Shown: positions 3,617 through 62,757 of the stretch, piece after piece
Position numbering within the stretch: the stretch's first letter is position 1
Layout of the letters: the number at the start of each line of letters is the position of its first letter
Assembly (NCBI GenBank): GCA_964344725.1
Contig: CAYFOI010000003.1
Coordinates: 1,520 to 65,519 of the forward strand
Direction of reading: 5' to 3'
Length of the DNA stretch: 64,000 nt
From: an uncultured Candidatus Peribacteria bacterium
GTDB lineage: Bacteria > Patescibacteriota > Gracilibacteria > UBA1369 > UBA12470
The notes under the pieces: model-generated
What the model saw: the letters and a program-made list of their open reading frames with translations, nothing else
Told to the model about the DNA's origin: nothing
Databases searched by the model: none
Program-made: the position numbers and the translations under genes

Positions 3617-6600
3617 TCATTCCACAATGCATCCACCAAATGCCCAGTCTTCGCCGTCGCTGTAATAGGAGCTTTCTGAGTATGCTTGTGCTGTGATTTC
3701 ATTATCTGTGCCGTCAAAAGCTACTCCGTTTAGACCTTTGACTGGGGTGTCATTGTCAGTTACTGCTTGAAGTGTACAGCTGTTTGCTGTTGGTGGAATT
3801 GGTGCGTTTATGATTTCTAAGAAATAGTCTTCAGAATAGTATTCAACGCCAAGTCCTTTTAGTGATACTGGTGATCCGTCACAGGTAAGCATCCAGTTGT
3901 CACTGTCTTTTGCGTTTGAATTTAGTCTAATGTTAAATCCAACTCTTGCGATTCCGCCTACAACTGTTCCGTCTTGTTCATAACCTACTACTGGATCAAA
4001 CCATGTTAATATTGGCGAATCGCTGCTTGCAGTTCCAGTTGTGAATACTAGGTCGTAGTCGGCAACATTGAATCCATATACATCTGTGATCGCAGCTCCG
4101 TAGATGCTTAATGTGTACTCAGTGTCTTCTAAAAGCGGTTCTTGTAGAAGCACTCTGTAAGCGTCGAATTCTGGGTCGAATTCGTAAGAGAATGCAGATA
4201 CAGCAGGTGATATAGCCATTGCTCCAGATCCTGTAGATCCGATAGCGTCGTCATATGCTATCATTATTTCCCAAATCATTGGGTCTACGTCTGTTTCTCC
4301 GTTTTCAACACTTGTGTATTCGATTTGTGTTGCTTCGGATGGGTTTAATGACGAATCGGCGTAATACTCGAAATATTCGGCTGGTAAGTCGGTGCCGTTT
4401 CCGTCTTTCAATCCTTCTATTGATAAGGTGTATATCTCGCTGTTGGTTAAGCCTCCTGCGAAGTTAACGTTAATAACGTCGCGGCCATCTTCTAGGCTGT
4501 TTTTCTTAAAAGTGAGTGAGACGGCGTTGCTTTGAGAATCTTTTAACGTGATGTTGTTTGATGTGACTGTTGCTCCGTTAACAGGTCCTGAATAAACCAA
4601 TTGGATTGTTTGTAGATTAGTAGCTACTTGTGAATACCAAGGTGGTTGGACCATCTGTAGCCAAACATCTTCGCCTGAGCTGATCATCATCGGTTCGTAA
4701 GTATCGCTGCCTGTCCATGTCCAAGTGTTTACTGTCATTGCATTTTCTCCAGATCCAACTGTCACTGATAGGTTGTTTGTGTCGTATGCTACTTCTGGTT
4801 GATTGAATATAATCGCCAGTTTTTTATCTGATCCTTCTCCAGCTTCAAAAGTGTCCATTCGAATGAGTGCCCATATGTCCGAAGTTGTTATATAAGGCTT
4901 TAAATCGCTACCAGACAGGTCTGTTATTAGAGTCGGATCGGTACATACAACTGTGCCTAAGGAGAATGGCTCAATCATGCTTTCTACATCTGCGTCACAT
5001 GTGATTGTGGATATTGTTCCTTGGTATGATGGCAAAATCATTACAGATGTCCCTGCTATCCCTTCGTGCATTGGGACGTATTCACCGGTTGCTGGTGGTT
5101 GACCTGTTGTAATATTGCTACATACTCTTTCGCCGCTAAGTCCGCCGATTGTGTTGGCTATTGTAATTTCTACTTGTGATGTGTCGTTGATTGCGTCGGC
5201 TGTGTCGTAAATTACGATTAGTTGGCTCGCATTCTGGTCGTCTTGCATAATCATCAGGATGTTTGAGTCTGTGATGCCGGATTCAAGGCCTGTGTCGTCT
5301 GAATGAGTTACGGCTGCTTTCGCGTAACATGTTCTGCTTTCGTACCCTGTTTCACAAGGTGTTGTGTTGGTAGCTCCGTCTAATTCCTCGTCTAGTGTTA
5401 TTATGACTATTCCATTGCCGTCCATTCCGCTATCGGCTCCTGGCCAGTAGGTTCCGTTTAGTTGTGGTGCTGGTGGCTCTGATTCTTCGAATGTGTCAAA
5501 TAATTTTTCTGATACATTGTTGAATGTGGAAATTGTAAGTTCGAGTTGAGTGTCATCACTTATGGCGTTTTCTGTGTCCATTATGACTACTATCGCTGAG
5601 TTTTCGCTTGGATTTATTGCAATTGCTTCTATTGTGGCTCCGCCTGCTAGTCCTCCTCCTGCGTCAGCAAGGGTCCCGAGTGTTTCGTCGATACATGTTG
5701 CGCTCCCGAATTCTGGTCTGTCAGGGCAGGCTACTTCTTGACCGCTTGAGTTAATTGCTTCTCCATCTGTCAAAGGTCCTTGTAATGTTGTTCTGTTCCC
5801 CCAAGACGCATCAGATTGCATGTATGTCATTGTGCCTCCAGGAGGTGGTGTTGATCCGGCGTTTGTTATATTTGTGTAAGATCCTGTGATGCCTCCTGTG
5901 TTTGCGAGTGAGACTTGTATATCAAGCGGAGTTGCTCCTGTTACTTGATCTGCGCCGTCGAAGACCAGGAAGAGATCGTTTTGAGTAAGGCTTACTCCTG
6001 TTACGAAATCACCTCTTACAGCGCCTAGTAAAGTTGCTCCTGGTGCGAACCCTGAATCGAGAGTTATCGTTGCTGTGTCGTAACATTCTGGGCTTGCTTC
6101 GAGATATCCTGTGATTGCTCCGTCACAAGCTACTACATTTGTTACTCCGTCCGGTTGCTGAGGAAGTTGTATTGTAACAGTTGTGTTGTTTCCTGCAACG
6201 CTGTTGGTGTTGTTGTAGCTGTGGCTTAGTACAGGTGGTTCTTGTTCTTCGGCCCAGTTGGATATTAGTACTTCGGCTACGTTATTATTTGCTTCTGCTT
6301 GTATTTCTATTGCTCCGGGATTCGTTACTGCATCTGCGGCGTCTAGGATTACGGTATACGTATTATCGAGGTCGCCATCTATAATGACAGCTTGTATTGT
6401 GCTTGTTGATAACCCTGTAGCGTTTGCGATTGTGACTACGTTTGTGTTTAGACAAGTCTCGCTGTCATATGCAGGGTCTGCTGGACATGCCGTTGTTAAT
6501 CCGTCTGTTGTGATTGATCCACTTCCAACTAATGGTGGAAATGTTAGGGTTGTTACGGCGAACTTGCTGTTGTCTTGGAAGTATGAACCTGTTCCGGTCG

Positions 6601-7645: not shown

Positions 7646-8134
7646 ATGGCGATATCCTTCTTGTCATTAGGTTCAAACATGGGGGATAGATGCGTTAACC
7701 TTGCGAGTGCGTATGATATTTTGGAAAATCTTGGTGTAAAAGTTTTACAAAAAAGCAGCGTATATGAATCTGATCCTTGGGGTTATGAGGAGCAGGCTAG
7801 TTTTCTTAATCAGGTTATTAAGGTTGAGACGGAGTTAAGTCCGGAGTCTTTGGTCCAGATATGCAAGGAGGCAGAAAAGCAAATTGGGCGTGTTGATAGC
7901 TTTAAATGGGGACCTCGTGTCTTGGATGTTGATGTGATTTTTTATGGGGATGAAGTTGTCGAGAAACCTGAATGTACGATCCCTCATCATCTTATGCATA
8001 ATAGGCTTTTTGTTTTGATCCCTCTGAATGAAATTGCTGGTGATTTTGTTCATCCTGTGTTTCGGAAAAATGTTTCTGAGTTGCTTAAAGCTTGTGAGGA
8101 TAAACATGGTGTTACGAAAGTCCCCTCTGTATAA
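7646..8134 (+). CDS. folK: 2-amino-4-hydroxy-6-hydroxymethyldihydropteridine pyrophosphokinase (HPPK)
   Basis: Carries the HPPK motifs LGSNMGDR, SSVYESDPWG, QASFLNQV, GPRVLDVDVIFYG and IPHHLMHNRLFVLIPLNEI. Confidence 0.85.
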   Translation: MAISFLSLGSNMGDRCVNLASAYDILENLGVKVLQKSSVYESDPWGYEEQASFLNQVIKVETELSPESLVQICKEAEKQIGRVDSFKWGPRVLDVDVIFYGDEVVEKPECTIPHHLMHNRLFVLIPLNEIAGDFVHPVFRKNVSELLKACEDKHGVTKVPSV

Positions 8135-16861: not shown

Positions 16862-17797
16862 ATGGCATCAAACATAAGAATTTTCGCTGGAACGTCTCAT
16901 CCTGAGCTGGCGAAAGCTATTTGTAAAAAACTTGGGACAAAGCTTTCTGAGCTAGAGACTTCCAGGTTTGCTTGTGGAGAAATCTATGCAAAGCCTGCAT
17001 CCACTGTACGGGGTGATGATGTGTTCATTATTCAGACAGCAACATCGAATGTTAACGAAGAGCTTATGGAGCTCTTTATTATTATCGATGCGATGAAGAG
17101 GTCTTTTGCGAAAAATGTTCATGTTGTGATCCCACATTTTCCTTATGCGCGTCAGGATCGTGTTGCGTCTCCGCGCGAGCCGATTTCTGCGAAGGTTGTT
17201 GCGAATTTGATTGGTGCGGCTGGGGCTGATCACGTGATGGTTGTTCAGATTCACTCTGAACAACAGCAAGGTTTCTTTCCTTTCCCAATTGATCATTTGA
17301 ATGCGAGGAAGCTTTTTGCGAAATATTTTAAGAAGAAAAAAATCAAAGATCTTGTTGTAGTAGCTCCAGATGCTGGGGCTGCGAAAGATGCTGATCGTTT
17401 AGCGCGGCACTTGGATACAACGATAGCGGTAATGAGTAAGGTTCGGCCTGAGCATAACAAGGCGGAGATTACGTCTCTTGTCGGTGATGTTGAAGGGAAG
17501 AACTGCATCATTTTTGATGATATGATCGATACGGCGGGAAGTATTTGTGCGGCGCATGATTATTTAAAGAAGCATGGGGCGAAAGATGTTTATGTCGCAG
17601 CGACTCATGCGATTTTCTCAGGTCCGGCTGTGGAAAGGCTGAATAAAACTGGCTTCAAAGGAGTGCTTGTAACAGATACGATTCCTGTGAAGGATAAGGT
17701 GAAAGGGCTTGAGGTTATTTCGGTAGCTCCTATGCTTGCGGCGGTGATTAAGAATGTTCATGAGGGGAAGAGTGTGACGTCGGTGTATAGAGGTTAG
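16862..17797 (+). CDS. prs: Ribose-phosphate pyrophosphokinase (PRPP synthetase)
   Basis: Motifs IFAGTSHPELAKAIC, FPYARQDR, VVAPDAGAAK and IIFDDMIDTAGS. Confidence 0.92.
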   Translation: MASNIRIFAGTSHPELAKAICKKLGTKLSELETSRFACGEIYAKPASTVRGDDVFIIQTATSNVNEELMELFIIIDAMKRSFAKNVHVVIPHFPYARQDRVASPREPISAKVVANLIGAAGADHVMVVQIHSEQQQGFFPFPIDHLNARKLFAKYFKKKKIKDLVVVAPDAGAAKDADRLARHLDTTIAVMSKVRPEHNKAEITSLVGDVEGKNCIIFDDMIDTAGSICAAHDYLKKHGAKDVYVAATHAIFSGPAVERLNKTGFKGVLVTDTIPVKDKVKGLEVISVAPMLAAVIKNVHEGKSVTSVYRG

Positions 17798-17863
17798 CTA
17801 TTTAGCTTTTTAGCTAGTTAGCTATTTAGGAACTAATAACTAATAGTTAATAACTTGAATGAC

Positions 17864-18500: not shown

Positions 18501-18580
18501 TTAATGTTCTTTATTAGCTATTTCTCTATGTGAGAAATTCTATTACTATGGTTGCAGAATTAGTTCATTATCAAGTCACC

Positions 18581-19210
18581 ATGAACGTGAAAATTGCACC
18601 ATCAATATTGTCGGCAGATTTCGGGAGACTCAACGAGGAGATCGCTGATGTTGCTGCTAAGGGGGCAGATTGGGTGCATGTTGATGTGATGGATGGGCAT
18701 TTTGTTCCGAATCTGACTTTTGGGGCGCCGGTTGTTAGGTGCATCAAGACAGATTTGCCTTTGGATGTGCATTTGATGATTGAGAACCCCGAGAAATATG
18801 TTTCGGATTTTGTTGATGCCGGGGCGGACTGGATTACAGTTCACTTCGAGACGTGTGACGATCTTAAAGGGGTGCTTGAAGATATTAAGATTGCTGGAGT
18901 TAAATGCGGTGTTTCTGTGAAGCCTGGGACTGCGATTTCGGAATTAAAACCGTATCTCGGTGATTTGGATCTTATCCTTATTATGAGTGTTGAGCCTGGT
19001 TTTGGAGGGCAGGAATTTATGGAGTCAGCAATTGATAAAATTAAGTGGCTTCGTGAGCAAGGCTTCGAAGGAGAGGTTAGTGTTGATGGTGGAATAAATG
19101 CGGATACGGGGAAGTTGTGCCGCGATGCTGGTGCGAATGTGCTTGTTGCGGGGAGTTATATTTTTGGAGCGGAGGATAGAAGTGAAGCGATAGCTTCGCT
19201 TAGGGAGTAG
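18581..19210 (+). CDS. rpe: Ribulose-phosphate 3-epimerase
   Basis: Motifs IAPSILSADF, HVDVMDGHFVPNLTFG, SVEPGFGGQ and VDGGIN. I trimmed the track ORF (GTG at 18530) to the ATG at 18581, which gives the usual N-terminus MNVKIAPS. Confidence 0.9.
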   Translation: MNVKIAPSILSADFGRLNEEIADVAAKGADWVHVDVMDGHFVPNLTFGAPVVRCIKTDLPLDVHLMIENPEKYVSDFVDAGADWITVHFETCDDLKGVLEDIKIAGVKCGVSVKPGTAISELKPYLGDLDLILIMSVEPGFGGQEFMESAIDKIKWLREQGFEGEVSVDGGINADTGKLCRDAGANVLVAGSYIFGAEDRSEAIASLRE

Positions 19211-19327: not shown

Positions 19328-19403
19328 GCGCCCGTAGTTCAGTGGATAGAACGCCAGATTGCGGATCTGGAAGTCGTAGGTTCAAATCCTGCCGGGCGCG
19401 CCA
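19328..19403 (+). tRNA. tRNA-Arg, anticodon GCG, with encoded CCA
   Basis: Manual cloverleaf: acceptor GCGCCCG/CGGGCGC, D arm GTTC-AGTGGATA-GAAC, anticodon arm CCAGA-TTGCGGA-TCTGG (U33, G34 C35 G36, G37), variable loop AAGTC, T arm GTAGG-TTCAAAT-CCTGC, discriminator G, then CCA. Confidence 0.9.
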
Positions 19404-19404
19404 G

Positions 19405-19517
19405 AGATGTTTGTTATTGTCTCGCTTATGGTTTCCTTTCTGTAATTTGGACTCCAGTTTCACCGAAGCCCAAATTACAGAAGCGTGCAAATATAAGCTC
19501 AACAATAACAAAAATCT
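19405..19517. repeat. Nested-hairpin element, family 1, copy A (immediately 3' of tRNA-Arg)
   Basis: Outer arms AGATGTTTGTTATTGTCTCGC and GCTCAACAATAACAAAAATCT pair at 17 of 21 positions. The conserved internal segments are TTATGGTTTCCTTTCTG and CAGAAGCGTGCAAATAT. The inner stem is CTGTAATTTGG/CCAAATTACAG, and the apical loop is ACTCCAGTTTCACCGAAGC. Confidence 0.75.
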
Positions 19518-19665
19518 TATCTATGGCAGTGTCTCGCATTATCTGGCGAGACGTTTCCAAGCTCGCTCTAAACATTCAAAAAATCTTTTGAAGCACTGCT
19601 GATGTTTTGTCGCAACTTTTTCTCTTTAATGGGTTATTGTATCTCAGTAAATAATATCAAACTTC

Positions 19666-19851
19666 ATGAAGATTCTTAAACCTGTAGCTACGATTGGCTT
19701 GTCGACGATGTTTGCATTGGGGCTTTCGCATGCTTGTCGTTCTGATGATGTTGTTAGCCAGCCTATTCCTGAACAGACTCAGCAGCGTAGTAACTTGCAG
19801 ATGTTTTTGGATTTTTTGGATGAATATAATGATTCGGATTCCGAGCAGTAA
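19666..19851 (+). CDS. Small secreted protein or possible lipoprotein (61 aa)
   Basis: Signal-peptide-like N-terminus MKILKPVATIGLSTMFALGLSHAC followed by an acidic tail. It sits between family-1 copies A and B. Confidence 0.45.
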   Translation: MKILKPVATIGLSTMFALGLSHACRSDDVVSQPIPEQTQQRSNLQMFLDFLDEYNDSDSEQ

Positions 19852-19902
19852 CTTCCAAAATTACTCCTGATGTGGTAAAATTTCCCGGCTAATCTTTTTT
19901 TG

Positions 19903-20004
19903 ATGAAGGACCAGAAATTCAAACTTGTATCAGCTTTTATGAAATATTGCTCAAATGGTTTCCTTTCTGTTATTTGTAGCCCAATTACATCGGATTACAA
20001 ATAA
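19903..20004 (+). pseudogene. Diverged fragment of the uvrB 5' end (33-codon decoy ORF running into element B)
   Basis: 19915-19938 (AAATTCAAACTTGTATCAGCTTTT) matches uvrB 20074-20097 (AAATTCAAACTTGTTTCAGATTTT) at 22 of 24 positions. The decoy encodes MKDQKFKLVSAF..., compared with UvrB MSKFKLVSDF. The decoy ATG is in frame with the uvrB ATG, 165 nt upstream. Confidence 0.65.
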
Positions 20005-20043
20005 CAGAAGCGTGCAAATATTTTCGCAATATTCCTAAAATCT
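19932..20043. repeat. Nested-hairpin element, family 1, copy B (25 nt upstream of the uvrB ATG)
   Basis: The outer arms are AGCTTTTATGAAATATTGC and GCAATATTCCTAAAATCT. The conserved internal segments are TCAAATGGTTTCCTTTCTG and CAGAAGCGTGCAAATATTTTC. The inner stem is CTGTTATTTGTA/TACAAATAACAG, and the loop is GCCCAATTACATCGGAT. Confidence 0.75.
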
Positions 20044-20067
20044 TTATGGATTAATAATTGTTAGCTT

Positions 20068-22047
20068 ATGTCTAAATTCAAACTTGTTTCAGATTTTCAA
20101 CCAATGGGAGACCAGCCGACTGCGATTGCACAGCTCGTCAAAGGTCTTGAGGCGAATAAGAGGTTTCAGACGCTTCTTGGTGCGACGGGGACGGGTAAGA
20201 CTTATGTGATGGCGCAGATTGTTGAGCAGCTGCAGCGGCCTACTATTGTTTTGGCGCATAATAAGACGCTGGCGGCGCAGCTTTTTTCGGAGTTTAAGAG
20301 TTTTTTTCCGGATAACGCGATTTCGTATTTTGTATCTTATTATGATTATTATCAGCCGGAAGCTTATATTGCGCATACGGATACCTATATCGAGAAAGAT
20401 GCGCAGATTAATGAGGAGATTGAGAAGTATCGGCATAAGGCAACGATGAATCTTTTGACGAGGCCGGATACGCTTATTGTTTCTTCGGTTTCTTGTATTT
20501 ATGGTCTTGGGAATCCGGGTGATTATGAGGATCTTAAGATTACTTTAAAAGTAGGGGAGACTCGGCAGAGAGACAAGTTGCTTCGTCATTTGACGGATTT
20601 GCAGTATACGAGGTCGAATATTGAGTTTAAGAACGGGATGTTTCATGTGCTTGGGGATGTCGTGGAGATTTTTCCTCCAGGTATGGATAGCGTTTATCGT
20701 ATTGATTTCTTTGGAGATGAAATTGAAGCGATTCAAGAGGTTGAGCACTTCACTGGAGAGCTTATTGAGGAGCTCTCTGAGGTTACGATTTTCCCGGCCA
20801 AGCATGATGTGACTACTGAAGAGAAGATTAAGCATGCTGTTGAATTAATTCGTCCTGATCTTGAAGCTCGTGTAAAGCAGCTTACTGATATTGGGAAGGG
20901 TCTTGAGGCGCAGAGGCTTCGGACGAGAACGGAGTATGATATTGAGATTTTGCTGGAAACTGGTTATTGCACAGGTATTGAAAACTATGTTCGTTATCTT
21001 AATTTGCGTGAGCCGGGTGAGCAGCCTGCTACACTTTTGGACTACTTCCCGGATGATTTTCTTATGATTATTGACGAGTCGCATATGACTGTGCCGCAGA
21101 TTGGCGCGATGCATAATGGGAATCTTTCACGCAAGAAAAATCTTGTTGAGCATGGGTTCCGTTTGCCTTCGGCTTATGACAATCGTCCGCTTAAGTTTGA
21201 GGAGTTTGAGGATCATGTTAAGAGGTGTGTTTTTGTTTCTGCTACTCCTGGGAAATATGAAATGGCACATACTAAAAAAGCGGATATCGCGGAGCAAATT
21301 ATTCGTCCGACAGGGCTGCTTGATCCGCAGGTTGAGGTTCGCTCCTCAGAAGGGCAGATGAAAGATTTGCGTAAGGAGATTGATAAAGTGCTTGAGCGCA
21401 ATGAGAGGGTTTTGGTGACGACTTTGACTAAGAAAATGGCTGAGGCTCTGACGAAATTCTTGGCTGAGCAAGGACTGAGCGTGAGGTATTTGCATTCGGA
21501 TATTGATACGATGGAGCGTATTGAGATTTTGCGTGATTTACGGCTTGGAAGGTTCGATATTTTGGTTGGAATTAACCTTCTGCGCGAGGGGCTTGATCTG
21601 CCAGAGGTGTCCTTGATTGGAATTCTGGATGCGGATAAGCAAGGGTTCTTAAGGTCTGAGAGTGCACTTATTCAAACCATTGGTCGTGCGGCTCGTAATG
21701 TGAATGGGAAGGTGATTATGTATGCTGACAATATGACTCCTGCTATGGAGGCGGCGATAGGAGAGACTGAGCGTCGTCGTGCTAAACAAGAGGCTTATAA
21801 CAAGGAGCATGGTATTACGCCGCAGACGATTATTAAGAAGATTCACGATATGGAAGAGATGAAGAAAGAGGAAGCTAAGAAGCAAGTTAAGCATTACGAT
21901 GGCAAGAAAGTTCCTCGTGAGGAACGCGAGCGTCTCATTGAAGGTATGGAGGCCGAGATGGATATCGCAGCTCAAAATATGGAGTTTGAAAAAGCTGCTG
22001 AGATTCGAGATGAGATTGAGAGGCTGCAATCTGAGTGGAATATGTAG
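20068..22047 (+). CDS. uvrB: Excinuclease ABC subunit B
   Basis: Motifs GDQPTAI, LLGATGTGKT, DESHMTVPQ, GINLLREGLDLPEV and QTIGRAARN, plus the C-terminal UVR motif (FEKAAEIRDEI). Confidence 0.95.
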   Translation: MSKFKLVSDFQPMGDQPTAIAQLVKGLEANKRFQTLLGATGTGKTYVMAQIVEQLQRPTIVLAHNKTLAAQLFSEFKSFFPDNAISYFVSYYDYYQPEAYIAHTDTYIEKDAQINEEIEKYRHKATMNLLTRPDTLIVSSVSCIYGLGNPGDYEDLKITLKVGETRQRDKLLRHLTDLQYTRSNIEFKNGMFHVLGDVVEIFPPGMDSVYRIDFFGDEIEAIQEVEHFTGELIEELSEVTIFPAKHDVTTEEKIKHAVELIRPDLEARVKQLTDIGKGLEAQRLRTRTEYDIEILLETGYCTGIENYVRYLNLREPGEQPATLLDYFPDDFLMIIDESHMTVPQIGAMHNGNLSRKKNLVEHGFRLPSAYDNRPLKFEEFEDHVKRCVFVSATPGKYEMAHTKKADIAEQIIRPTGLLDPQVEVRSSEGQMKDLRKEIDKVLERNERVLVTTLTKKMAEALTKFLAEQGLSVRYLHSDIDTMERIEILRDLRLGRFDILVGINLLREGLDLPEVSLIGILDADKQGFLRSESALIQTIGRAARNVNGKVIMYADNMTPAMEAAIGETERRRAKQEAYNKEHGITPQTIIKKIHDMEEMKKEEAKKQVKHYDGKKVPREERERLIEGMEAEMDIAAQNMEFEKAAEIRDEIERLQSEWNM

Positions 22048-22158
22048 GATTTTTGTTTATCTTGCTCAAATGGTTTCGTTTCTGTTATTACGAACCCAAT
22101 TTCATCGAGCTCGTAATAACAGAAGCCTGCAAATATTTTCGCAAGACAAACAAAAATC
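22048..22158. repeat. Nested-hairpin element, family 1, copy C (starts 1 nt after the uvrB stop)
   Basis: Outer arms GATTTTTGTTTATCTTGC and GCAAGACAAACAAAAATC pair at 17 of 18 positions. The conserved segments are TCAAATGGTTTCGTTTCTG and CAGAAGCCTGCAAATATTTTC. The inner stem is CTGTTATTACGA/TCGTAATAACAG, and the loop is ACCCAATTTCATCGAGC. Confidence 0.75.
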
Positions 22159-22245
22159 TAATGAGGGTGCTGCTGATGCTCTCTCGACAATAACAAAAAT
22201 CTTTTGAGGAGTGGTTTGTTTTGGTGGCATTTGTTGTTGATATAA

Positions 22246-22255
22246 GGGGGGGGGG
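22246..22255 (+). repeat. Homopolymeric G10 tract in the intergenic region upstream of the 22353 gene
   Basis: TATAAGGGGGGGGGGTGTTT; ten consecutive G, about 100 nt upstream of the start codon at 22353. Confidence 0.9.
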
Positions 22256-22352
22256 TGTTTTGCAGGTTGGCGTATGTGTTCGTTCCGCGAGGTCGTTGCT
22301 AACAAGGCTTTTTGTTGTATAATTTTAGCTTAAATTTCAAATAATTTTTGTT

Positions 22353-27780: not shown

Positions 27781-28398
27781 TTATGCGACTTTGCTCTTGA
27801 TCATCATGACGCCTACGATTGCGCTTCTTTCGCCTTCTTCGAGCTTCATTGAGATAAATTTGATTGTCTCTTTGAGGCTTGGGATTCGGTTGTGTTCTAG
27901 AGCGTTTACACGGCGGCGTGTTTTCTCGGTCTCTTCTGCGAGTCTTTCAGCTTGTTTCTCGATTTGTGCGAGTTTGATTAGGTCTGGAAGGACTTCTTGA
28001 AAAGCTTTCAGCGAACTGTCTAATTCGCTTGATGTTTGGTTGAATCCGTATGAGAGGATATTCCCGTCTAATTTCTGTTTAAAGAAAGGAATATGGACGC
28101 TCATCACGTTCTTTGTAGCGACATCGAGACTTAGGTTGGCTGAATTGAATGTCAAAGCGCTTTCGAGCATCTTTGGCATTGTTTTCGCAGAGCCAAAAAG
28201 GAAGCTTTTGAAAGCTTTTTCGAGTTTTTCTTCAATATCTCGGCGTAGCGTCTTTGCTTCACGGATAATCTCCATGAATTGTTGCATAAGGCCGTCTTGT
28301 TTGTCTTTTAGGAGCTTGTGACCGCGTACAGCCGCCTTGAGCTGTATCTTCAGCTTCAGGAGCTCCATTCTAGTTGGTTTGACGTCTAGTTTTGCCAT
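27781..28398 (-). CDS. ntpD: V-type ATPase subunit D
   Basis: N-terminus KPTRMELLKLKIQLKAAVRGHKLLKDKQD and the C-terminal ETEKTRRRVNALE motif. It is the last gene of the operon. Confidence 0.85.
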   Translation of the reverse strand: MAKLDVKPTRMELLKLKIQLKAAVRGHKLLKDKQDGLMQQFMEIIREAKTLRRDIEEKLEKAFKSFLFGSAKTMPKMLESALTFNSANLSLDVATKNVMSVHIPFFKQKLDGNILSYGFNQTSSELDSSLKAFQEVLPDLIKLAQIEKQAERLAEETEKTRRRVNALEHNRIPSLKETIKFISMKLEEGERSAIVGVMMIKSKVA

Positions 28399-28436
28399 AA
28401 TTTTTTAGAGTTTTAGAATTCTAGAATTCTAGATCT

Positions 28437-29843
28437 TTATTCTTGTTCTGCTTCTTTTTCTTCAGTATCACCACCTTTGCCGTCCATGTATTTCGCGATA
28501 TGTTCTTCTTTGACACGTTTCAACTCTGTCTTAGGTAGGACCTTTAGGAGTTCCCATCCGATTGAAAGAGTATCTTCGATGCTTCTATCTTCATATTCAC
28601 CTTGTGCGATGAATTTTGCTTCGAAGTTGTTAGCAAATTCCAAGAATTTCTTATCGACTTCTTGAAGAGCGGCTTCACCTAGGATAATAGCAAGGTCACG
28701 GACCTCAACTCCACGGGCATACGCTGCATAAAGTTGTGCAAACATACCTTCGTGGTCCTCACGTGTGACTTTACGAGCTGTAGGAGCAAGACGTGAAAGT
28801 GAAGGAAGTACGTTGATACAAGGATAGATACCTTTCCTGTGGTGTTCACGAGAAAGTACGATCTGTCCCTCTGTAATATAACCTGTAAGATCAGGAATTG
28901 GGTGAGTAATATCGTCTTCCGGCATAGTTAGGATAGGGATCTGCGTGATAGATCCTTTACGTCCTTTAATTCGACCAGCTCTTTCGTAAAGTGTAGCAAG
29001 GTCTGTATACAGATAACCTGGATAACCACGTCGTCCCGGAACCTCTTTACGAGCTGCAGATACCTCACGTAGAGCCTCACAATAGTTTGTAAGATCGGTA
29101 AGCACCACGAGTACGTGCATATCTTTCTCGTAAGCTAGGTACTCAGCTGTTGTAAGTGCCATACGTGGTGTCGCGATACGTTCTACTACAGGATTGTCAG
29201 CTGTATTGATAAAAAGAACAGCTCTTTCAATAGCTCCAGTCTTTTTGAACTCGTTTGTAAAGTATTCAGCTTCTTCAAATGTAACACCCATCGCTGCGAA
29301 CACTACCGCAAAGTCTCCACTTCCTTCTGAGCGTACTTTTGCCTGACGAGCGATTTGTGCAGCAATTTGAGCGTGTGGAAGACCTGCTCCTGAGAACACA
29401 GGAAGTTTTTGTCCACGTACAAGCGTGTTTAGACAGTCAATTGTTGAAATTCCTGTTTGGATGAAGTCGTTTGGATAGTCACGAGAATAAGGATTCAAAG
29501 GAGCACCGTTGATATCTAACTTTTTTTCTGGGATGATGTCGGCTCCACCGTCAATTGGGTTGCCTTTACCATCGAAGACGCGTCCTAGCATCTCTTCTGA
29601 GACTGGAAGTTCTAGAGTTTTGCCTAGGAATCTAGCTTTTGCTCCCTCTGTTCCGACACCTTGTGTGTTCTCGAACATCTGGACCATAGCCATTCCCTTG
29701 TTGGCTTCAAGAACTTTACCGAGACGAGTTTCTCCTGACGGGAGCGTGATCTCACAAAGCTCTTCGTACTTGATGTCATCAACTCCTTCTACCATGACCA
29801 GCGGTCCGGCGATGGAGGTAATGGTTTGATATTCTTTTTGCAT
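28437..29843 (-). CDS. ntpB: V-type ATPase subunit B
   Basis: Motifs [59 protein letters not shown] and [31 protein letters not shown]. Confidence 0.95.
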
Positions 29844-31678: not shown

Positions 31679-31746
31679 AGTGTTTAGTGATTAGTATGTT
31701 AGTAGATTAGTTGATTAGAATTTTAGAGTTTTAGAATTCTAGAACT

Positions 31747-32100
31747 CTACTTGTCTCCGAGGATGTCTGATCCGACCGCTTGTTCTACGATTTTACTTAT
31801 TCTCTTAAGTCCGAATCCTGTTGTGCCTTTTGGTCCAGGGATTGGGATTATTGCTGGCAAAGCTGCTGCTGAAAGTTTTTTATAGTCATCTGCAGGTATG
31901 TCCATCGCTAGGTCTTCTATGATGAATATGATTGCGTACATCGGTTTTTCATTTCCCTCTTCTCCGATGGTTTTTTTTGCGAGTGATTGTAAAGCTTCTA
32001 ATGCTTGTTCTTTGTTTAGGGCGCTGTGAGCTTCTAATCCTAGAGCTTTGAAACCTAGGACTGCGTCTTTTGGGCCGATGATTGCTATTTTATGTTGCAT
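31747..32100 (-). CDS. V-type ATPase subunit F
   Basis: 117 aa with the motif KIAIIGPKDAVLGFKALGLEA. Its position between the C and A subunit genes fits. Confidence 0.75.
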   Translation of the reverse strand: MQHKIAIIGPKDAVLGFKALGLEAHSALNKEQALEALQSLAKKTIGEEGNEKPMYAIIFIIEDLAMDIPADDYKKLSAAALPAIIPIPGPKGTTGFGLKRISKIVEQAVGSDILGDK

Positions 32101-33231: not shown

Positions 33232-33274
33232 GATGTTTTAGCTTGTTGGCTTTTTAGCTAGTTAGCTTGTTAGG

Positions 33275-33829
33275 TTAAAATAAGATGTTTGCGACCTTTG
33301 TTTCTAGTTCATCGCGAAGTTGTTTTTCGATTATTGAGTCAAAAGTGAAGTCGTATTCAACTTTACCAGCTTTTAGCACGAATCCTCCTTGGAAGGCCCC
33401 TTCGCTACCTAGAGTGTATTCAGTACCTTTTATTACTTCTTCTGTTTCGGATTTTTTGCCTTTTGCTGGGATTATCTCACCTGTTTTCGAGTGCTTCTCG
33501 GCTTTTTCTAAGGAAGTTTTTAGGTATTTTTTATAATCTGGGGATGAAGTCAGTTCTGCCAAAGTGTCGACGAATACGCTGTTTAGGATTTCACGTTTTT
33601 TTGCTAGGACGCGTTTTCTTTTCTCTGTGTTTGCTAGCATTTCTGCACGAGCTTCGACTCGATCTATTGCTTCGCCTGCTTTTTTCTCGATATTGGTTAC
33701 AGCTTCTTCGCGTTTCTCTTTGTATTCGGCTTTAATGCGTTTTAGTTCTTCTGCGAGTTTTTTCTCGAGTTCTTTGATTTTCTTATCACCTATTTGTTCG
33801 ATTTCTTTGATTAAGTCTTTTAGGGACAT
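33275..33829 (-). CDS. ntpE: V-type ATPase subunit E (peripheral stalk)
   Basis: 184 aa with a long N-terminal charged coiled coil (KELEKKLAEELKRIKAEYKEKREEA) and a globular C-terminus (GGFVLKAGKVEYDFTFDSI). Confidence 0.75.
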   Translation of the reverse strand: MSLKDLIKEIEQIGDKKIKELEKKLAEELKRIKAEYKEKREEAVTNIEKKAGEAIDRVEARAEMLANTEKRKRVLAKKREILNSVFVDTLAELTSSPDYKKYLKTSLEKAEKHSKTGEIIPAKGKKSETEEVIKGTEYTLGSEGAFQGGFVLKAGKVEYDFTFDSIIEKQLRDELETKVANILF

Positions 33830-33919
33830 CTTTTTAGTAGGTTAGTAGGTTAGTAGGTTAGCTTGTTGCTGATTTGTAACCTCGCTCGAGCTTGGCTTAA
33901 GCGAGGATGAAATCAATAA

Positions 33920-39443: not shown

Positions 39444-41531
39444 TTAATTTATGCGGCTGTCCAATGATATTACCTTTTTGGCGGTTTTGGCAATTTTCTT
39501 TGTTTTTAGGCGTGCTTCAGGTAGTGCGTATTCGGTGAAGCTGTTGAATCCGTCAGGTTCTTGGAATGGTGTTGTGCCTGGAGGTGGAAATGGGATTTTA
39601 TAAATTATCAATGTTTCTAGTGGACCAGGTGATAGCATTTGCCAGAATTTGTAGGTTCCGATAATTATTGTTGTGCTGGGTTTGTTTTCGCTTTTTAGTT
39701 TGATCTTGCCTATTCCGCCTGATGATCCTTGGGTTAAGACTGTGATGCCTTGGTCTTTTAATGGCAGGGCTAATTTGCTATGTAATATTGATGCTGTTCT
39801 TTGTGAATTTACGAGTATGAATGCGGGTTTTTCTAGCTCTTCTAAATTGCTTGAGAGGTAGTTGTCGGCGTTTTCTGTGAAAGCAGGGTCTTTTGGAGGT
39901 GGCAAGTCGATGGTTTCTATTTCCAGATTGTTTGATTCTGCTTCTACTGCGAAGTTTTTCGGCAGATTGAGGAGTCTTTTTATATAAAGTCCTTTAGGGG
40001 ATTCTTGAGCGTATGTTATTGATGTCCCGACGAGTGATAGCTTATCTGGCTTGTTCCAGATTTTTTCTGCTAAAAGTTCACCAATGTTTAATGGTGTGAT
40101 TTTTAGCAGCGGTGAGCCATTTTGCATAAGCATTATCTCTATTCGGAGGTTGAGTGAGCCGTTTTTGCTTTTATCCAAGAATTTCAGAAGTTTTTCTTCT
40201 TCGAATTCGGTACCTAAATCTGCTGCAATTTTTCCTGTGAGGTCTGCGATCTTTTGCCATTCGATTGTCGAGTAATGATACTGATTTAATTCAAGTGCAA
40301 ATTTGTCTCCATGTTTTTCGTACATTATTCCGATGTAGCCGAATAGAATGGTTAATTTCTCTTTTGTTTCTTGTGGGAGTTTTGAGTTTGCAAAGCGTTC
40401 TTCGAAGTAGCTTGCTGTGAAAGCTTGTTGTACGCTTCCATAAAACTCCTCGATGTTGTCTATGATTAGGTGTGTTTCTGTTAAATCTATTTGTTCTGAT
40501 TTTGCTAGTCGTCCGAGTGTGTGGTGGGAAAGGATTGTAGGATCGGAGGATTGGAGGATTTTTAGGGTTTCTGGTGGATAATTGGTGTGGCAGTAGTCGA
40601 ACCAAAGATTTTTGATGTTTTGGGGGAGGGTGATTTGAGTAGCTTGTAGCTGGTAGCTTGTAGGTTGTAGGGGGAGGATTTTTAGGGCGAAGACTGTTTC
40701 TTCTGCGGATAGTGAATCTTTTTTGAGTAGTTCTTTGAATAAATCTGAGTTTAGGTATTGGTTTGGATTTAAGATTGTCAGATTCTCTTGTTCTGTGGTT
40801 GCGATGATTATCTTTTGTTCTGGCTTCTCTGGTGTTATTTCTGCGGTTGTGTGTGGAGGGAGTTCTTGGAGGGTGTTAGCTTGTAGGTTGTAGGTTGTAG
40901 CTTGTAGGTTGTAGGTTGTAGCTTGTTGGGTTTGAGTATTTGGTATTTGGTGGTTTCGCAAGGAGTAAAGGAGGATGTCTTTCCAAGGGGACAGGGATTT
41001 TTCTAGGATTCCTCGGGTTTCTTCTGAATTGTTTTTTGAGAAATACATATCAAGAAGGAGGAATATGATTTCTATATTGTCGATTACGTCTTTTAGGGCG
41101 CGATGTTTTCCAGTTTCCTCAATTCCGAGTTTTTCTGCGATTATTTCTAGGCTGTATGATTTTTCTTTTGGGATAGCGATGTGGGCAATGTCCATTGAGT
41201 CGAGTCTTGTGTTGGGCAGATTGAAACCGTTTTCTTCGAGGAAAGTAATGTCGAAGCTGATGTTATGGCCCATGATTGGATAGTCTTTGATGAAATTCTG
41301 GAGCTCATCTTTGATTTCGTCTATTTGAGGTGCATCTTTGACGTCTTCGTTGGTGATTCCTGTTAGGTTTGTTACTAGGTTTGGGATTGTGACGCCTGGA
41401 TTTATAAAAGTTTCAAATTTGTCTTCTACTTGGCGTGTTTCTAGGTTTACCAAGGCTGCTCCGATCTCAATGATCTTGTCGTGTTCAGGGCTCAGGCCTG
41501 TGGTTTCTATGTCGAGGCAGATGATGTACAT
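39444..41531 (-). CDS. DnaQ-type 3'-5' exonuclease fused to a DinG-like C-terminal region (695 aa)
   Basis: The N-terminus has DEDDh exonuclease motifs (LDIETTGLSPEHDKIIEIGA; GHNISFDITFL; HRALKDV). The C-terminus resembles DinG helicase domain 2 (PAFILVNSQR..., IIIGTYKFWQMLS, LIIYKIPFPPPG). I could not find a Walker A motif. Two spacer-like word-repeat segments are embedded in frame. Confidence 0.7.
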   Translation of the reverse strand: MYIICLDIETTGLSPEHDKIIEIGAALVNLETRQVEDKFETFINPGVTIPNLVTNLTGITNEDVKDAPQIDEIKDELQNFIKDYPIMGHNISFDITFLEENGFNLPNTRLDSMDIAHIAIPKEKSYSLEIIAEKLGIEETGKHRALKDVIDNIEIIFLLLDMYFSKNNSEETRGILEKSLSPWKDILLYSLRNHQIPNTQTQQATTYNLQATTYNLQANTLQELPPHTTAEITPEKPEQKIIIATTEQENLTILNPNQYLNSDLFKELLKKDSLSAEETVFALKILPLQPTSYQLQATQITLPQNIKNLWFDYCHTNYPPETLKILQSSDPTILSHHTLGRLAKSEQIDLTETHLIIDNIEEFYGSVQQAFTASYFEERFANSKLPQETKEKLTILFGYIGIMYEKHGDKFALELNQYHYSTIEWQKIADLTGKIAADLGTEFEEEKLLKFLDKSKNGSLNLRIEIMLMQNGSPLLKITPLNIGELLAEKIWNKPDKLSLVGTSITYAQESPKGLYIKRLLNLPKNFAVEAESNNLEIETIDLPPPKDPAFTENADNYLSSNLEELEKPAFILVNSQRTASILHSKLALPLKDQGITVLTQGSSGGIGKIKLKSENKPSTTIIIGTYKFWQMLSPGPLETLIIYKIPFPPPGTTPFQEPDGFNSFTEYALPEARLKTKKIAKTAKKVISLDSRIN
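40877..40927 (-). repeat. In-frame 21-nt tandem repeat (about 2.4 copies) inside the DnaQ/DinG-like CDS
   Basis: The plus-strand unit is GCTTGTAGGTTGTAGGTTGTA. It encodes QATTYNL-QATTYNL-QA on the minus strand, using the same word vocabulary as the intergenic spacers. Confidence 0.85.
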
Positions 41532-48604: not shown

Positions 48605-49555
48605 ATGAACACATCAATTGATTTTTGCGGCGTTAAATTCCCGAACCCTACTGTATTAGCGTCAGGGATTTTGGGTGTAATAGGTGACTCTCTTAAGAAT
48701 GTGGCCGAGATTGGGGCTGGAGGTGTAACCTCCAAGTCTGTTTGGCTTGAGCGTCATGAGGGGCATCCGAATCCGACGATGATGGGGACGGAGCATTACT
48801 ATATCAATGCTGTTGGATTACCTGACGGAGGCATTGAAAAAGCACGTGAAGAGCTTGGGAAGTATATGAATTGGAAAGGTTCTAAGCGCGAAGAGGAGCA
48901 GGTGCCTTTGATAGCAAACATTGTTGCTGGGAAAATTTCTGATTTTGAGCAGATTGCTGCTGAGATTATAAAAATCGAACCCGATATTGTTGAGGTCAAT
49001 ATTAGTTGTCCTAATGTTGAGAATGAATTTGGTCGGCCTTTTGCGGTTAATCCGGATGATGCTGCTGAAGTTACTCGTACTGTGAAACAAGTTATTCAAG
49101 ATATACCTGTTGCAATTAAGTTGTCTCCGAATGTTGCTGATATAAGGGAAATTGCTGTTGCTTGTGAAATGGCTGGTGCCGATGCGATTACTGCTGTTAA
49201 TACTTTTGGCCCAGGGATGGTCATTGATATTGATACTGCTGAGCCGATTTTGGCTAACAAAGTTGGTGGAGTGAGCGGTCCTGGGATTAAGCCTCTGGCT
49301 GTGAAGCGTGTTTGGGATGTTGCTAGCGCAGTTTCTATACCTGTTATTGGTATGGGGGGTGTGACTACTGGTCGAGATATTATTGAGTTTATGATGGCTG
49401 GTGCGAGTCTTGTTGGGATTGGCGCTGGTGTTTATTATCGAGGAGCTGAGATTTTTGCAGAGGCAATGAAGGAGGTTGAAGAGTGGATGAAAGAAGAGGG
49501 TGTGACTGATTTGTCTGAGATTATTGGAAAATCTGTTAAGAAATATAGTCAGTAG
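48605..49555 (+). CDS. pyrD: Dihydroorotate dehydrogenase, class 1B catalytic subunit
   Basis: Motifs FPNPTVLASG, NAVGLPDGG, NISCPNV (active-site Cys) and GGVSGPGIKP. The pyrK gene follows. Confidence 0.9.
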   Translation: MNTSIDFCGVKFPNPTVLASGILGVIGDSLKNVAEIGAGGVTSKSVWLERHEGHPNPTMMGTEHYYINAVGLPDGGIEKAREELGKYMNWKGSKREEEQVPLIANIVAGKISDFEQIAAEIIKIEPDIVEVNISCPNVENEFGRPFAVNPDDAAEVTRTVKQVIQDIPVAIKLSPNVADIREIAVACEMAGADAITAVNTFGPGMVIDIDTAEPILANKVGGVSGPGIKPLAVKRVWDVASAVSIPVIGMGGVTTGRDIIEFMMAGASLVGIGAGVYYRGAEIFAEAMKEVEEWMKEEGVTDLSEIIGKSVKKYSQ

Positions 49556-49631
49556 GATTTAGTCAGTAGTCAGTAGAGAGTAGAATGGAGCGCTTCGCGC
49601 AGGTTAGTAATTAATAAAAAACTTTAAAAAA

Positions 49632-51240: not shown

Positions 51241-51303
51241 TTTTCTCTTTTTTTGAAGATGTGGCATAATGCGCAGCGTCTCTATTCGCTTAATCTTCAA
51301 AAA

Positions 51304-51951
51304 ATGGAAAATGTATCAAAGGAAGTTGCTGGTGCTTTGCTTGGTATTGGCGCTGTGAAAGTTAGTATGGATCCGCCGTTTCAGTGGGTTTCTGGAATAA
51401 AATCTCCTGTTTATTGTGATAATCGCATGATGATTTCGCATGTTGCTGAGAGACAAATCGTTGTTGATGCTTTTAAGAAAATGGTTGCAGATCTTGATTA
51501 TGATCCTGATTACATTGGTGGAACTGCTACTGCAGCTATACCTTGGGCTGGATTTTTGGCTCAGGAACTAGGCAAGCCAATGATTTATATTCGTCCTAAA
51601 AAGAAGGAGCATGGTGCTGGTAAGCAGATTGAAGGTGATCTTGAAGCTGGCAAAAAGGTTCTTATAATTGAAGATCTTATTTCTACTGGCGGAAGTAGTG
51701 TTCGTGCTGCGCAGGCTGTTCGTGAAGAAGGCCAGTGTGAAGTGAGCGACATTTTCGCAATTGTTACTTGGGAAATGGGTAAATCTAAAACTGCTTTCGA
51801 AGAGGCTGGTATCAATTTAACAACACTTACTGGTTTTACTGACCTAATTGGCCTTGCTGAGGAGAGATCTGATATTACTTCTGAACAAGCTGGGATGATT
51901 CATAAGTTCAAGGAAGATCCTGCTGGATGGTGGGATGTAGTATCGTCTTAA
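51304..51951 (+). CDS. pyrE: Orotate phosphoribosyltransferase
   Basis: PRPP-binding motif VLIIEDLISTGGS, plus FQWVSGIKSPVYCDNR. I trimmed the track ORF (51253) to the ATG at 51304 (MENVSKEVAG...), which matches the usual OPRTase N-terminus. Confidence 0.88.
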   Translation: MENVSKEVAGALLGIGAVKVSMDPPFQWVSGIKSPVYCDNRMMISHVAERQIVVDAFKKMVADLDYDPDYIGGTATAAIPWAGFLAQELGKPMIYIRPKKKEHGAGKQIEGDLEAGKKVLIIEDLISTGGSSVRAAQAVREEGQCEVSDIFAIVTWEMGKSKTAFEEAGINLTTLTGFTDLIGLAEERSDITSEQAGMIHKFKEDPAGWWDVVSS

Positions 51952-52033
51952 TGATTCTCGCTCCCGAGAAAGGCCTAATCCCGCTTTGCGGGATTGGTGT
52001 TTCTAAGATCGCTCTAATCATTAAGACGATACT
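51939..52033. repeat. Hairpin element, family 2, copy 3 (stem built from the pyrE 3' end)
   Basis: A perfect 18-bp stem: AGTATCGTCTTAATGATT, which includes the pyrE TAA stop, pairs with AATCATTAAGACGATACT. The 59-nt loop starts CTCGCTCCCG and ends AAGATCGCTCT. The loop contains its own hairpin AATCCCGC-TTT-GCGGGATT (51977-51995). Confidence 0.75.
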
Positions 52034-52125
52034 TGATGTTGATTAGAGCTTATGATTTAGGGTGTAGGATTATTGTGCGACTTGATATATACTCCTCCAT
52101 GCCTAATTTACTAACCTACTAATCA

Positions 52126-59330: not shown

Positions 59331-59762
59331 TTATCTCTTAGACCACTGCGGTGCTCTTCTCGCTTTCTTGAGTCCGTATTTCTTTCTTTCTTTTGTTCTT
59401 GAGTCTCTGGTGAGGTATCCAGCTTTTTTCAATGTTGTCCTTAGTTCGGCATCATATTCTAGTAGAGCTTTTGCGATACCGTGTCTAATAGCCTCTGCTT
59501 GTCCTGTAGGACCGCCGCCTAAAACTTTAGCTGATATATCAAAGTCTTTAACTTTTTTAACTAGTTTCAAAGGAGCTAGCATAGCTCCGATTAGTTCATT
59601 TACTTTTAGATATTCTCTGCCCTCTTGGTTATTTATAACTATTTTCCCTGTGCCTTTGTATAGTCTTACACGTGCGACAGAAGTTTTTCTTTTACCGCAA
59701 GCGTAGTAGTATTTACCGCTTAGTTTGATTGGTGAAGTTGTTGTTTCGTCTTTTTTTGGCAT
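59331..59762 (-). CDS. rpsI: 30S ribosomal protein S9
   Basis: [19 protein letters not shown] and the C-terminal [12 protein letters not shown]. Confidence 0.93.
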
Positions 59763-59808
59763 ATTGATTAGCTTTTTAGGTATTTAGCTAGTTGGCTATT
59801 TAGATTTA

Positions 59809-60243
59809 TTATAGTTCGATTGGTTCTGGATTCTGAGCTGTGTGCTTATGTTCTTCTCCAGCGTAGATTTTTAATTTTGATAAAACATGTGTTCTTAATC
59901 TGTTTCTTGGGACCATCCCTTTTACAGCTTCTGCAAGGATGTTTTCAGGCTTTTTTTCTCTCATTTCACGAGCTGTAGTCTCTTTTAGAGCTCCTGGGTA
60001 TCCGCTGTGTCTGTAGTATTTCTTTTGATCCCATTTTTGACCTGAAAGCTTGATCTTGTCTGCGTTGATAACAACGACATGATCTCCGCAGTCGATGTGT
60101 GGCGAGAAGGTTGGCTTGTTTTTTCCTCTTAAGATTACTGCGATTTTTGTTGCTAGTCTTCCAAGAGTTTTACCTTTTGCGTCTACTAAGTACCATTTTC
60201 GGTTCTTATCGATGTCTTCTAGTTTTGGTGAGAATGTCTTCAT
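59809..60243 (-). CDS. rplM: 50S ribosomal protein L13
   Basis: [45 protein letters not shown]. Confidence 0.93.
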
Positions 60244-62310: not shown

Positions 62311-62342
62311 GGTTAGTAGTTTAGTAGGTTAGTAAGTTAGAT

Positions 62343-62717: not shown

Positions 62718-62757
62718 TTTTAGTAGCTTAGTAGGTTAGTAAGTTAGTAGGTTAGCG

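Follow-up and report, generated by a model that had tools for sequence, protein, structure and literature searches.

Several described systems resemble parts of the locus considered here, the 5' end of uvrB in a 64,000-nt stretch (hereafter the window) of contig CAYFOI010000003.1 from an uncultured Candidatus Peribacteria bacterium, where a palindromic element, element B, lies between two copies of the first uvrB codons. Palindromic intergenic repeats that are similar to miniature inverted-repeat transposable elements (MITEs), such as the Correia elements of Neisseria, ERIC, RUP and REP/BIME, are usually intergenic and co-transcribed. Rickettsia palindromic elements (RPEs) are translated as part of the host protein. 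The elements e14 and phage 21 in icd, and islands in tRNA 3' ends, are integrated elements that carry a replacement gene end. Homology-facilitated illegitimate recombination has been described for the transformable Acinetobacter and Streptococcus pneumoniae, and attenuation by leader peptides or upstream open reading frames (uORFs) for trp, erm and cat-type leaders. Placed beside these systems, the uvrB locus is likely to be a recombination or insertion scar, in which the ancestral start of the gene would have been displaced by element B. The features at the uvrB start are the following.

19328 to 19403, + strand: tRNA-Arg (GCG), which marks the synteny with relatives.
19871 to 19892, + strand: conserved promoter-like block, TGTGGTAAAAT, of the extended -10 form, with TAAAAT at 19876-19881, then GGCTAA at 19887-19892.
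19903 to 20004, + strand: putative relic of the ancestral uvrB start, now a 33-codon uORF, MKDQKFKLVSAF MKYCSNGFLSVICSPITSDYK followed by the stop, ending in the 3' strand of the inner stem of element B.
19915 to 19938, + strand: upstream copy of a 24-nt direct repeat, corresponding to codons 5-12 of the proposed ancestral gene.
19931 to 20043, + strand: element B, a palindromic repeat with outer arms AGCTTTTATGAAATATTGC and GCAATATTCCTAAAATCT, cores AAATGGTTTCCTTTCTGT and ACAGAAGCGTGCAAATAT, and an inner stem at 19965-20009.
20044 to 20067, + strand: spacer and leader of the present uvrB start, 24 nt, TTATGGATTAATAATTGTTAGCTT, A/T-rich and containing TAA, TAA and TAG.
20068 to 22047, + strand: uvrB, the present gene, 659 amino acids (MSKFKLVSDF...), with a putatively secondary start consisting of ATG-TCT and then the repeat copy.
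20074 to 20097, + strand: downstream copy of the 24-nt repeat, present codons 3-10, the last 7 nt of which are AGATTTT (20091-20097).

Like the Correia, ERIC, RUP and REP/BIME repeats, element B and its relatives are non-coding, roughly 100-130 nt long and present in several copies, and they form near-perfect long hairpins that have been kept despite divergence. The location at 3' ends and the clustering, with tandem partial units after tRNA-Arg both in the window and in a related genome (locus L088), also fit the REP/BIME comparison, but the family unit of about 113 nt with its nested hairpin is much longer than a REP (20-40 nt). Unlike all of these repeats, two further copies in the window, elements A and C, have no consistent target-site duplication, the arms vary strongly between copies while the internal cores are conserved, and the copies hold syntenic positions across saturated lineages and have no Rfam match. 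As with the RPEs, the palindrome lies within the former coding sequence of a conserved housekeeping gene that is functional. Unlike an RPE, element B is closed by stops (TAA at 20002 and TAG at 20062), and the rescue of uvrB would have come from duplication of its 5' end together with a new start; an in-frame insertion of the RPE type was rejected because these stops close the frame. The similarity to e14 and phage 21 is that direct repeats derived from part of the target gene stand on both sides of the insert, with one copy in the intact gene and the other in a dead fragment. In contrast to those elements, the insert here is only about 135 nt long and has no integrase, the repeat is at the 5' end of the gene, and at the left junction there is a 7-nt microhomology with the terminus of the insert itself. 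One junction at a microhomology, with the other side colinear and an insertion combined with a duplication of recipient sequence, is the pattern of homology-facilitated illegitimate recombination, which we infer here from sequence. Finally, as in the trp, erm and cat-type leaders, there is a short upstream ORF whose translation would disrupt a leader hairpin, but alternative pairing, a U-tract terminator and regulatory codons are absent, and the ORF can be shown to be a remnant of uvrB itself.

The repeat copies at 19915-19938 (AAATTCAAACTTGTATCAGCTTTT) and 20074-20097 (AAATTCAAACTTGTTTCAGATTTT) are identical at 22 of 24 positions, for which the binomial probability (at least 22 of 24 matches at 30% background identity) is about 4e-10 per alignment. 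No further match to the 24-mer with at most 3 mismatches was found in the 64-kb window, and none in 100 dinucleotide shuffles. The edges of the repeat are sharp, with flanking identities of 0/6 on the 5' side and 1/6 on the 3' side. The upstream ORF starts at ATG 19903 with MKDQKFKLVSAF and ends after 33 codons at TAA 20002-20004, which is 63 nt from the uvrB ATG. ATG 19903 is in phase with the uvrB ATG at 20068, at a distance of 165 nt, and two in-frame stops, TAA 20002 and TAG 20062, separate them; read-through of element B into uvrB is ruled out by these two stops. The sequence-only reading had reported the 22/24 repeat, the upstream ATG and the in-phase spacing, all of which hold when the sequence is read again, as does the overlap of the 5' outer arm of element B with the repeat, with which the first 7-8 nt of the element are shared. 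It had also correctly placed the end of the ORF at 20002-20004 and noted the short distance between the outer arm and the uvrB ATG, but it is the 3' strand of the inner stem, and not the loop, that contains the stop, and the distance is 24 nt (the arm ends at 20043) rather than 25. The duplicated codons specify the conserved N-terminal segment of UvrB, KFKLVSDF, and in alignments with all solved UvrB chains the present N-terminus is matched from residue 1-3 onward.

By its UvrB protein, the window belongs to the candidate phyla radiation, where it falls among metagenome-assembled genomes (MAGs) of Peregrinibacteria and Peribacteria. Look-ups of exact proteins with the window UvrB and with the product of the upstream ORF at 18530-19210 gave no match; the near-identical P0002 led to the same-species locus L082. 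The relatives compared were as follows, with the identity of their UvrB to that of the window.

P0002, locus L082: UvrB of the same species as the window.
P0003, loci L083, L084 and L088, and P0004, locus L085: 91% to the window UvrB.
P0005, locus L086: 84% to the window UvrB.
P0007, locus L093: 80% to the window UvrB.
P0008, locus L001: 79% to the window UvrB.
P0010, locus L094: 78% to the window UvrB.

At third codon positions, the window and L083/L085 are only 55% identical, and unconstrained sequence should therefore no longer align. Nevertheless, the segment 19862-19938 is colinear in DNA with the true uvrB starts of L086, L094 and L001, the shared order being TGTG(G/A)TA..AT......(G/A)GCTA, ATG, and GAC CAG AAA TTC AAA CTT GTA TC. 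The UvrB N-termini of close relatives are MSKDHKFKLVSDF (in a 91% identical protein), MPDDQKFKLVSDF, MPDDQQFKLVSDF and MSDQKFKLVSDF, and those of the closest relatives include MPDDQKF and MSDQKF. The residues D-Q-K (GAC CAG AAA) are kept in the upstream copy, MKDQKFKLVS, and are absent from the present start, MSKFKLVS. Comparison with the uvrB upstream regions of the relatives thus showed that the upstream copy, with its ATG and the promoter-like block, matches the true starts of four related lineages base for base. Because of this colinearity and the retained D-Q-K codons, the upstream copy is, on comparative grounds, identified as the ancestral uvrB start, of which the promoter-like block, the leader, the ATG and the first 12 codons persist in order at 19871-19938. 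The term decoy, which had been applied to the upstream copy, is the wrong word, as that copy would be the original start and the present start the secondary one.

The pattern TG.TA...T......GGCTA in the promoter-like block is invariant in the window, L088, L085 and L086, and in L094 and L001 the block stands directly before the true uvrB ATG. ATG 19903 is located about 21 nt downstream of the extended -10 block, and in both L086 and the window a T-run and then an ATG follow the block (GGCTAAC-TTTTTTTATT-ATG versus GGCTAAT-CTTTTTTTG-ATG). Conservation across saturated divergence indicates that the block is not neutral and, together with the extended -10 form (TGnTAnnAT), suggests that it is the uvrB promoter. 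A scan with consensus promoters flagged nothing inside element B or before the relic ATG, the extended -10 being recognized by conservation only. A new uvrB promoter at the weak -10-like TAAAAT of the right arm of element B (20036-20041) was also considered and is unsupported, with a poor -35. In L001 and L094, the uvrB ATG is 9 nt past the -10-like hexamer, and the mRNAs may be nearly leaderless.

The tRNA-Arg upstream of uvrB is also present in L001, L086 and L088. Between the tRNA-Arg and the promoter block, the window contains an ORF of 61 amino acids (19666-19851) with a signal-peptide-like N-terminus (MKILKPVATIGLSTMFALGLSHAC...), which has no counterpart in the L088 lineage, where the gap between tRNA and uvrB is only about 320 nt. 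L085 is 95% identical to L088 within uvrB, yet its leader cannot be aligned, and the uvrB leader region thus turns over fast.

Element B belongs to a family with 4 copies plus fragments in the window, three of them within 3 kb, which are 73-84% identical. The other members in the window and the hairpins assigned to the family in relatives are listed here, with minimum free energies (MFE) of the RNA where these were computed.

19405 to 19517, + strand: element A, a long nested hairpin immediately after tRNA-Arg, MFE -40.3, z -7.2.
22047 to 22159, + strand: element C, the closest copy to element B (84% over 83 nt), beginning on the uvrB stop, MFE -41.9.
22185 to 22202, + strand: solitary right-arm fragment of the family, CGACAATAACAAAAATCT.
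51936 to 52036, + strand: element D, with different arms, overlapping the stop (51949-51951) of the gene at 51259-51951, MFE -49.1, z -9.1.
L088, 2637-2712 and 4936-5019: family hairpins.
L001, 3213-3318: family hairpin.
L093, about 2468-2585: family hairpin.

Elements A, B and C have in common two 18-nt cores, AAATGGTTTCCTTTCTGT and ACAGAAGCGTGCAAATAT, and compensatory changes were found in 13 of the 47 pairs of their inner and outer stems. The core of element D resembles that of the L088 copy behind uvrB. The hairpin of element B consists of an inner stem (19965-19985/19989-20009) and outer arms (about 19931-19956/20020-20043); with an MFE of -29.9 kcal/mol and z = -3.8 it is the weakest and most degenerate of the three. 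The terminal inverted repeats, a feature of MITEs, are 24-25 nt long and 84-88% complementary in elements A and C, and 21 nt long and 76% complementary in element B. The target duplication expected for a MITE was not seen in the flanks of element A (…GCGCCAG / TATCTATG…) or element C (…AATATGT / AATGAGG…), and a flanking repeat is present only at element B, where it is 24 nt long and overlaps the terminus of the element. The element termini, AGATTTTTG ... CAAAAATCT, do not have the core sites RYYYAAC ... GTTRRRY, and an integron attC site was rejected for this reason.

The window, L088 and L001 all have a hairpin immediately behind tRNA-Arg, those of L088 and L001 showing related termini and cores that are partly related. 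Further hairpins lie at the uvrB stop codon or on it in the window, in L083/L084/L088 and in L093, the L085 copy being cut by the contig end. These gene-end hairpins of the clade are 84-113 nt long with an MFE of -28 to -49 kcal/mol, and an internal motif is partly kept, for example GTTTC..T...AGAAGC..GCAA in the window and L001. As the sites after tRNA-Arg and at the uvrB stop are kept across lineages with saturated synonymous sites, the family appears, from these comparisons, to be one of old, position-stable 3'-end elements with co-varying arms, to which element B, inside a transcription unit, is the exception. We consider the long hairpins a candidate family of 3'-end elements in this Peregrinibacteria clade. 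In a search of Rfam 15, only the tRNA passed the gathering threshold and no element family was recovered; at E up to 10 the elements match only generic long-hairpin models of microRNA precursors, far below threshold. None of the 80 uvrB loci from other genomes contains the core motifs, and blastn of the elements against all loci recovered only the same species, just as the L083 copy recovered only the L083/L084 lineage. A metagenome scan with both cores (TTTCNTTTCTGT N23-45 ACAGAAGCNTGCAAA) gave 0 matches in a collection that does not contain the window species. An alignment of 7 copies of the wider family was too divergent for a reliable covariance model, and a literature search on such elements in Peregrinibacteria or Patescibacteria found nothing relevant.

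Some smaller observations concern the same hairpins. Behind the tRNA-proximal element of L088 (2654-2795), and also of L084, the inner part and right arm are repeated as a 71-nt tandem duplication, to which a partial second unit after element A in the window (19529-19590) is comparable. L082 terminates inside element C and L081 starts just past it (window positions about 22165-22170), and in L086 a run of about 100 N (2251-2350) immediately follows tRNA-Arg, at the expected place of the hairpin; such contig breaks and N-runs at family members suggest that those genomes contain the elements in more than one copy. The G-run at 22246-22255, which follows element C and precedes the promoter-like site (22296-22323) of the next gene, is 10 nt long in the window and 9 nt long in L081, and this difference may be a homopolymer error of sequencing or assembly, or a variable tract.

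The left junction of element B lies within the upstream repeat copy. The end of the intact repeat copy, AGATTTT (20091-20097), is the exact complement of the right terminus of element B, AAAATCT (20037-20043), and is therefore the left terminus expected for the element as well as codons 9-10 of uvrB; element A has AGATGTTT and element C has GGATTTTT at this place. The upstream repeat copy has AGCTTTT instead, which serves as the start of the outer arm. AGATTTT occurs at only 22 of 64,000 plus-strand positions. The left junction of element B sits on a 7-nt microhomology and not at a random place. To the right of the element follow 24 nt (TTATGGATTAATAATTGTTAGCTT), then ATG TCT, then the repeat.

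A comparable leader is found in L088, where an internally deleted copy of the element lies between the promoter block and ATG TCG AAG GAT CAC AAA TTC... This copy has the common terminus AAAATCTTTATGGA and is separated from the ATG by exactly 24 nt, as in the window, and the block from the right end of the element through the spacer to ATGTCN is identical at 27 of 37 positions between the two, or 13 of 23 outside the terminus. The copy in the L088 leader no longer folds (MFE -10.8, z +0.97), and no upstream repeat copy is present there. A metagenome scan with the repeat itself (AAATTCAAACTTGTNTCAGNYTT) recovered the L084 lineage (L088, L090), L089, a distant relative whose uvrB starts with ATG AAA TTC, and two unrelated matches, and no intermediate forms.

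We propose that the ancestral uvrB started at ATG 19903 behind the conserved extended -10 block, and that element B, about 113 nt long and from a family that normally lies behind genes, came to lie after uvrB codon 12, its left end being joined to uvrB at the AGATTTT microhomology. On its right side the element would have brought along, or been followed by, the 24-nt spacer, the new start ATG-TCT and codons 5-12 in a second copy, which restored a full-length uvrB that includes KFKLVSDF; the old start would have been left behind as a 33-codon uORF ending in the hairpin. Since the duplicated codons encode the conserved N-terminal segment, only products that regenerate this segment keep uvrB intact. 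The likeliest route is that an L088-like allele with the element in its leader recombined with an L086-like allele without it, in what may have been one step, with an illegitimate left junction at the microhomology and ordinary homology on the uvrB side. The homology, colinearity, junction sequences and family distribution used here are direct observations, and the route would most likely be homology-facilitated illegitimate recombination. An insertion scar had already been named as one reading of the locus, and both the ancestral upstream start and the usual place of the family behind genes support it.

Several observations weigh against this history. L083, L085 and L088 carry AAG GAT CAC after ATGTCN, codons that the window retains in the relic alone, so that an additional 9-nt indel, or a donor allele without these codons, must be assumed. 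If the event predates the split of the window and L088, 22 of 24 identical positions are more than expected for a neutral relic, with a probability of about 0.02 for at least 22 of 24 at an estimated one-branch neutral identity of 0.72, which hints at a recent origin, gene conversion or constraint. Neither an allele of this species without element B nor a donor locus was found among the loci compared, and a search for literature on MITE insertions rescued by new starts found nothing relevant. A 24-nt target duplication by an unknown insertion mechanism is also possible.

The leader could also have been exapted for regulation, although we regard this as unlikely; ribosomes from the relic ATG would then set the output of uvrB, and the relic start would be kept by selection. 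On transcripts from the old promoter, the routes, which are no likelier, would be the unwinding of a terminator-like or inhibitory hairpin in element B, or termination and reinitiation. The start-region MFE (-30..+30) is -4.2 +/- 2.8 for genes in the window versus -10.1 +/- 3.6 for all ATGs, and both the relic ATG (-6.2) and the present uvrB ATG (-4.3) are in the range of real starts. This weakly structured context, typical of real starts, is in favor of exaptation, and because of it the relic ATG is probably translated as a 33-codon uORF if transcription still starts at the old promoter. The uORF also covers the 5' half of the hairpin, and family members sit where transcription units end (after the tRNA and on stop codons), addresses that are terminator-like, so that element B could block read-through; no canonical terminators were found at the sites of family members behind the tRNA and genes. 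The 22/24 identity, which is somewhat above expectation for an old neutral relic, and the L088 leader, in which a decayed hairpin goes together with the absence of an upstream ORF, point in the same direction. Gene starts in the window are in general marked by A/T-rich, weakly folded regions.

The folding results argue otherwise. In folds of 19886-20120, whether free, with the uORF held single-stranded or with a ribosome footprint at the stop, the uvrB start was not sequestered (mean unpaired probability of 0.59 for the start region in the free ensemble), and the local structure at the start is the same with and without the entire uORF held open. No alternative pairing, as the mutually exclusive structures of an attenuator would require, was found in these folds. 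With a U-run on its 5' side and an A-run on its 3' side, the hairpin of element B does not qualify as a canonical intrinsic terminator, and a terminator scan of the plus strand of the leader flagged no hairpin followed by a U-run. The distance of 63 nt from the uORF stop to the uvrB ATG is far for reinitiation. The combination of a uORF and a hairpin before uvrB is found in none of L001, L083-L086, L088, L093 and L094 and only in the same-species L082, so that a regulatory leader would be limited to one lineage and lacks comparative support. The relic further carries a D->A change at a residue that is conserved in close relatives, as expected without constraint on the peptide. It had been claimed that uvrB has no Shine-Dalgarno (SD) sequence, which is true and yet not special, as an SD-like 4-mer at -22..-4 was found in only 3 of the 40 long ORFs of the window. 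With a start that is not sequestered, a general lack of SD sequences and a decayed hairpin in L088, none of the results supports the translational coupling or attenuation that had been read from this geometry. In a specific form of co-option, to which we assign a still lower probability, the family would consist of 3'-end hairpins for termination or processing, and element B would be passed only when ribosomes from the old ATG translate its 5' half. If this were true, the output of uvrB would depend on the coupling of transcription and translation, through an attenuator born from an insertion scar.

The order of events could also be the reverse, with the upstream copy being secondary. Here, an L088-like arrangement of element, spacer, ATGTCN and uvrB would be ancestral, a short copy of the uvrB 5' end would have been inserted later, and the gene would then have lost AAGGACCAG. 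The right end of element B with the 24-nt spacer and ATGTCN does look orthologous to that of L088, with identical spacing, the L088 leader copy ends in AAAATCT like the window copies and unlike the other copies in L088, which have AAAAACT, and the N-terminal MS is common to the window and L083/L085. The spacer identity outside the element terminus is, however, only 13 of 23, and the upstream copy is contiguous and colinear with the block and T-run as in the outgroup L086 (GGCTAA(C/T)-TTTTTTT-ATG), and colinear with L094 and L001 too. As GAC CAG AAA is absent from the supposed source, this order would need a copy event, a later 9-nt deletion and the chance rebuilding of the spacing between promoter and ATG, and we consider it improbable.

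That the arrangement is a chance similarity, or an assembly chimera of two strain variants, is very improbable. The source is a metagenome assembly, and the contigs L081 and L082 of the other assembly break at element C. Against this, the shuffles gave 0 matches and the match probability is about 4e-10, and a repeat of 24 nt is far below the k-mer size of the assembler (k127 in the name of L082). The second assembly (L082, ENA ERZ930068) differs from the window at a single base in 3358 and has an identical arrangement at the uvrB start, which makes an assembly artefact unlikely. Programmed bypassing, in which ribosomes from 19903 would take off in the upstream repeat, land on the downstream repeat and skip element B, the product being a UvrB with the ancestral N-terminus, can be dismissed as most improbable, since only the geometry of identical codon strings that flank a hairpin insert inside a former coding region is in its favor, and the gap is 159 nt as compared to about 50 nt in T4 gene 60 and 27-55 nt in yeast mitochondrial byps, the upstream repeat continues into ATG AAA TAT TGC, without a stop or stall codon, and an ordinary ATG in good context already precedes the downstream copy.

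The displacement of the uvrB start by element B would thus provide a clear, datable example of a housekeeping gene that survived disruption of its 5' end by a palindromic repeat, in that the first codons were duplicated behind the insert, a new ATG was recruited and the old start-like site became a uORF. For annotation, it serves as a warning that the short ORF and the missing ribosome-binding site at this locus are not signs of a special mechanism. The scar itself is well documented and of modest interest beside the hairpin family at gene ends, which is absent from Rfam, is the more promising lead and merits an analysis of its own.

Two other uvrB genes with unusual structures were encountered among the loci compared. 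In L092 (1-170; P0011, a close relative of L001), the homology to uvrB starts only at about codon 21 (…AIAQLVKG) and the upstream sequence is unrelated, which may reflect a 5'-truncated or chimeric gene, or another rearrangement or a misassembly at its 5' end. In L023 (about 4300-6000), from a Peribacteria MAG, an apparent intein, present as a large in-frame insertion, directly follows the Walker A motif of UvrB (…GVTGSGKS|VVSDTP…HNTFTMA).

Many intergenic spaces of the window, before starts and after stops, are filled with tandem arrays of 7-8-nt units that each contain a stop codon, such as TTAGCTNN, TAGAATTC, GTAGGTT and TAGTCAG, and CTACTAAC on the coding strand before ATGs. The arrays are located as follows.

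17786-17847: tandem array, window.
28390-28447: tandem array, window.
31700-31757: tandem array, window.
33238-33283: tandem array, window.
33819-33869: tandem array, window.
40523-40944: tandem array, window.
49546-49584: tandem array, window.
59760-59813: tandem array, window.
62306-62755: tandem array, window.
7970-8000: tandem array, L001.

With a period of 8 nt, such an array puts a stop into each of the three frames. The leader of the present uvrB (ATTAATAATTGTTAGCTT) resembles a degenerate tandem array of this kind.

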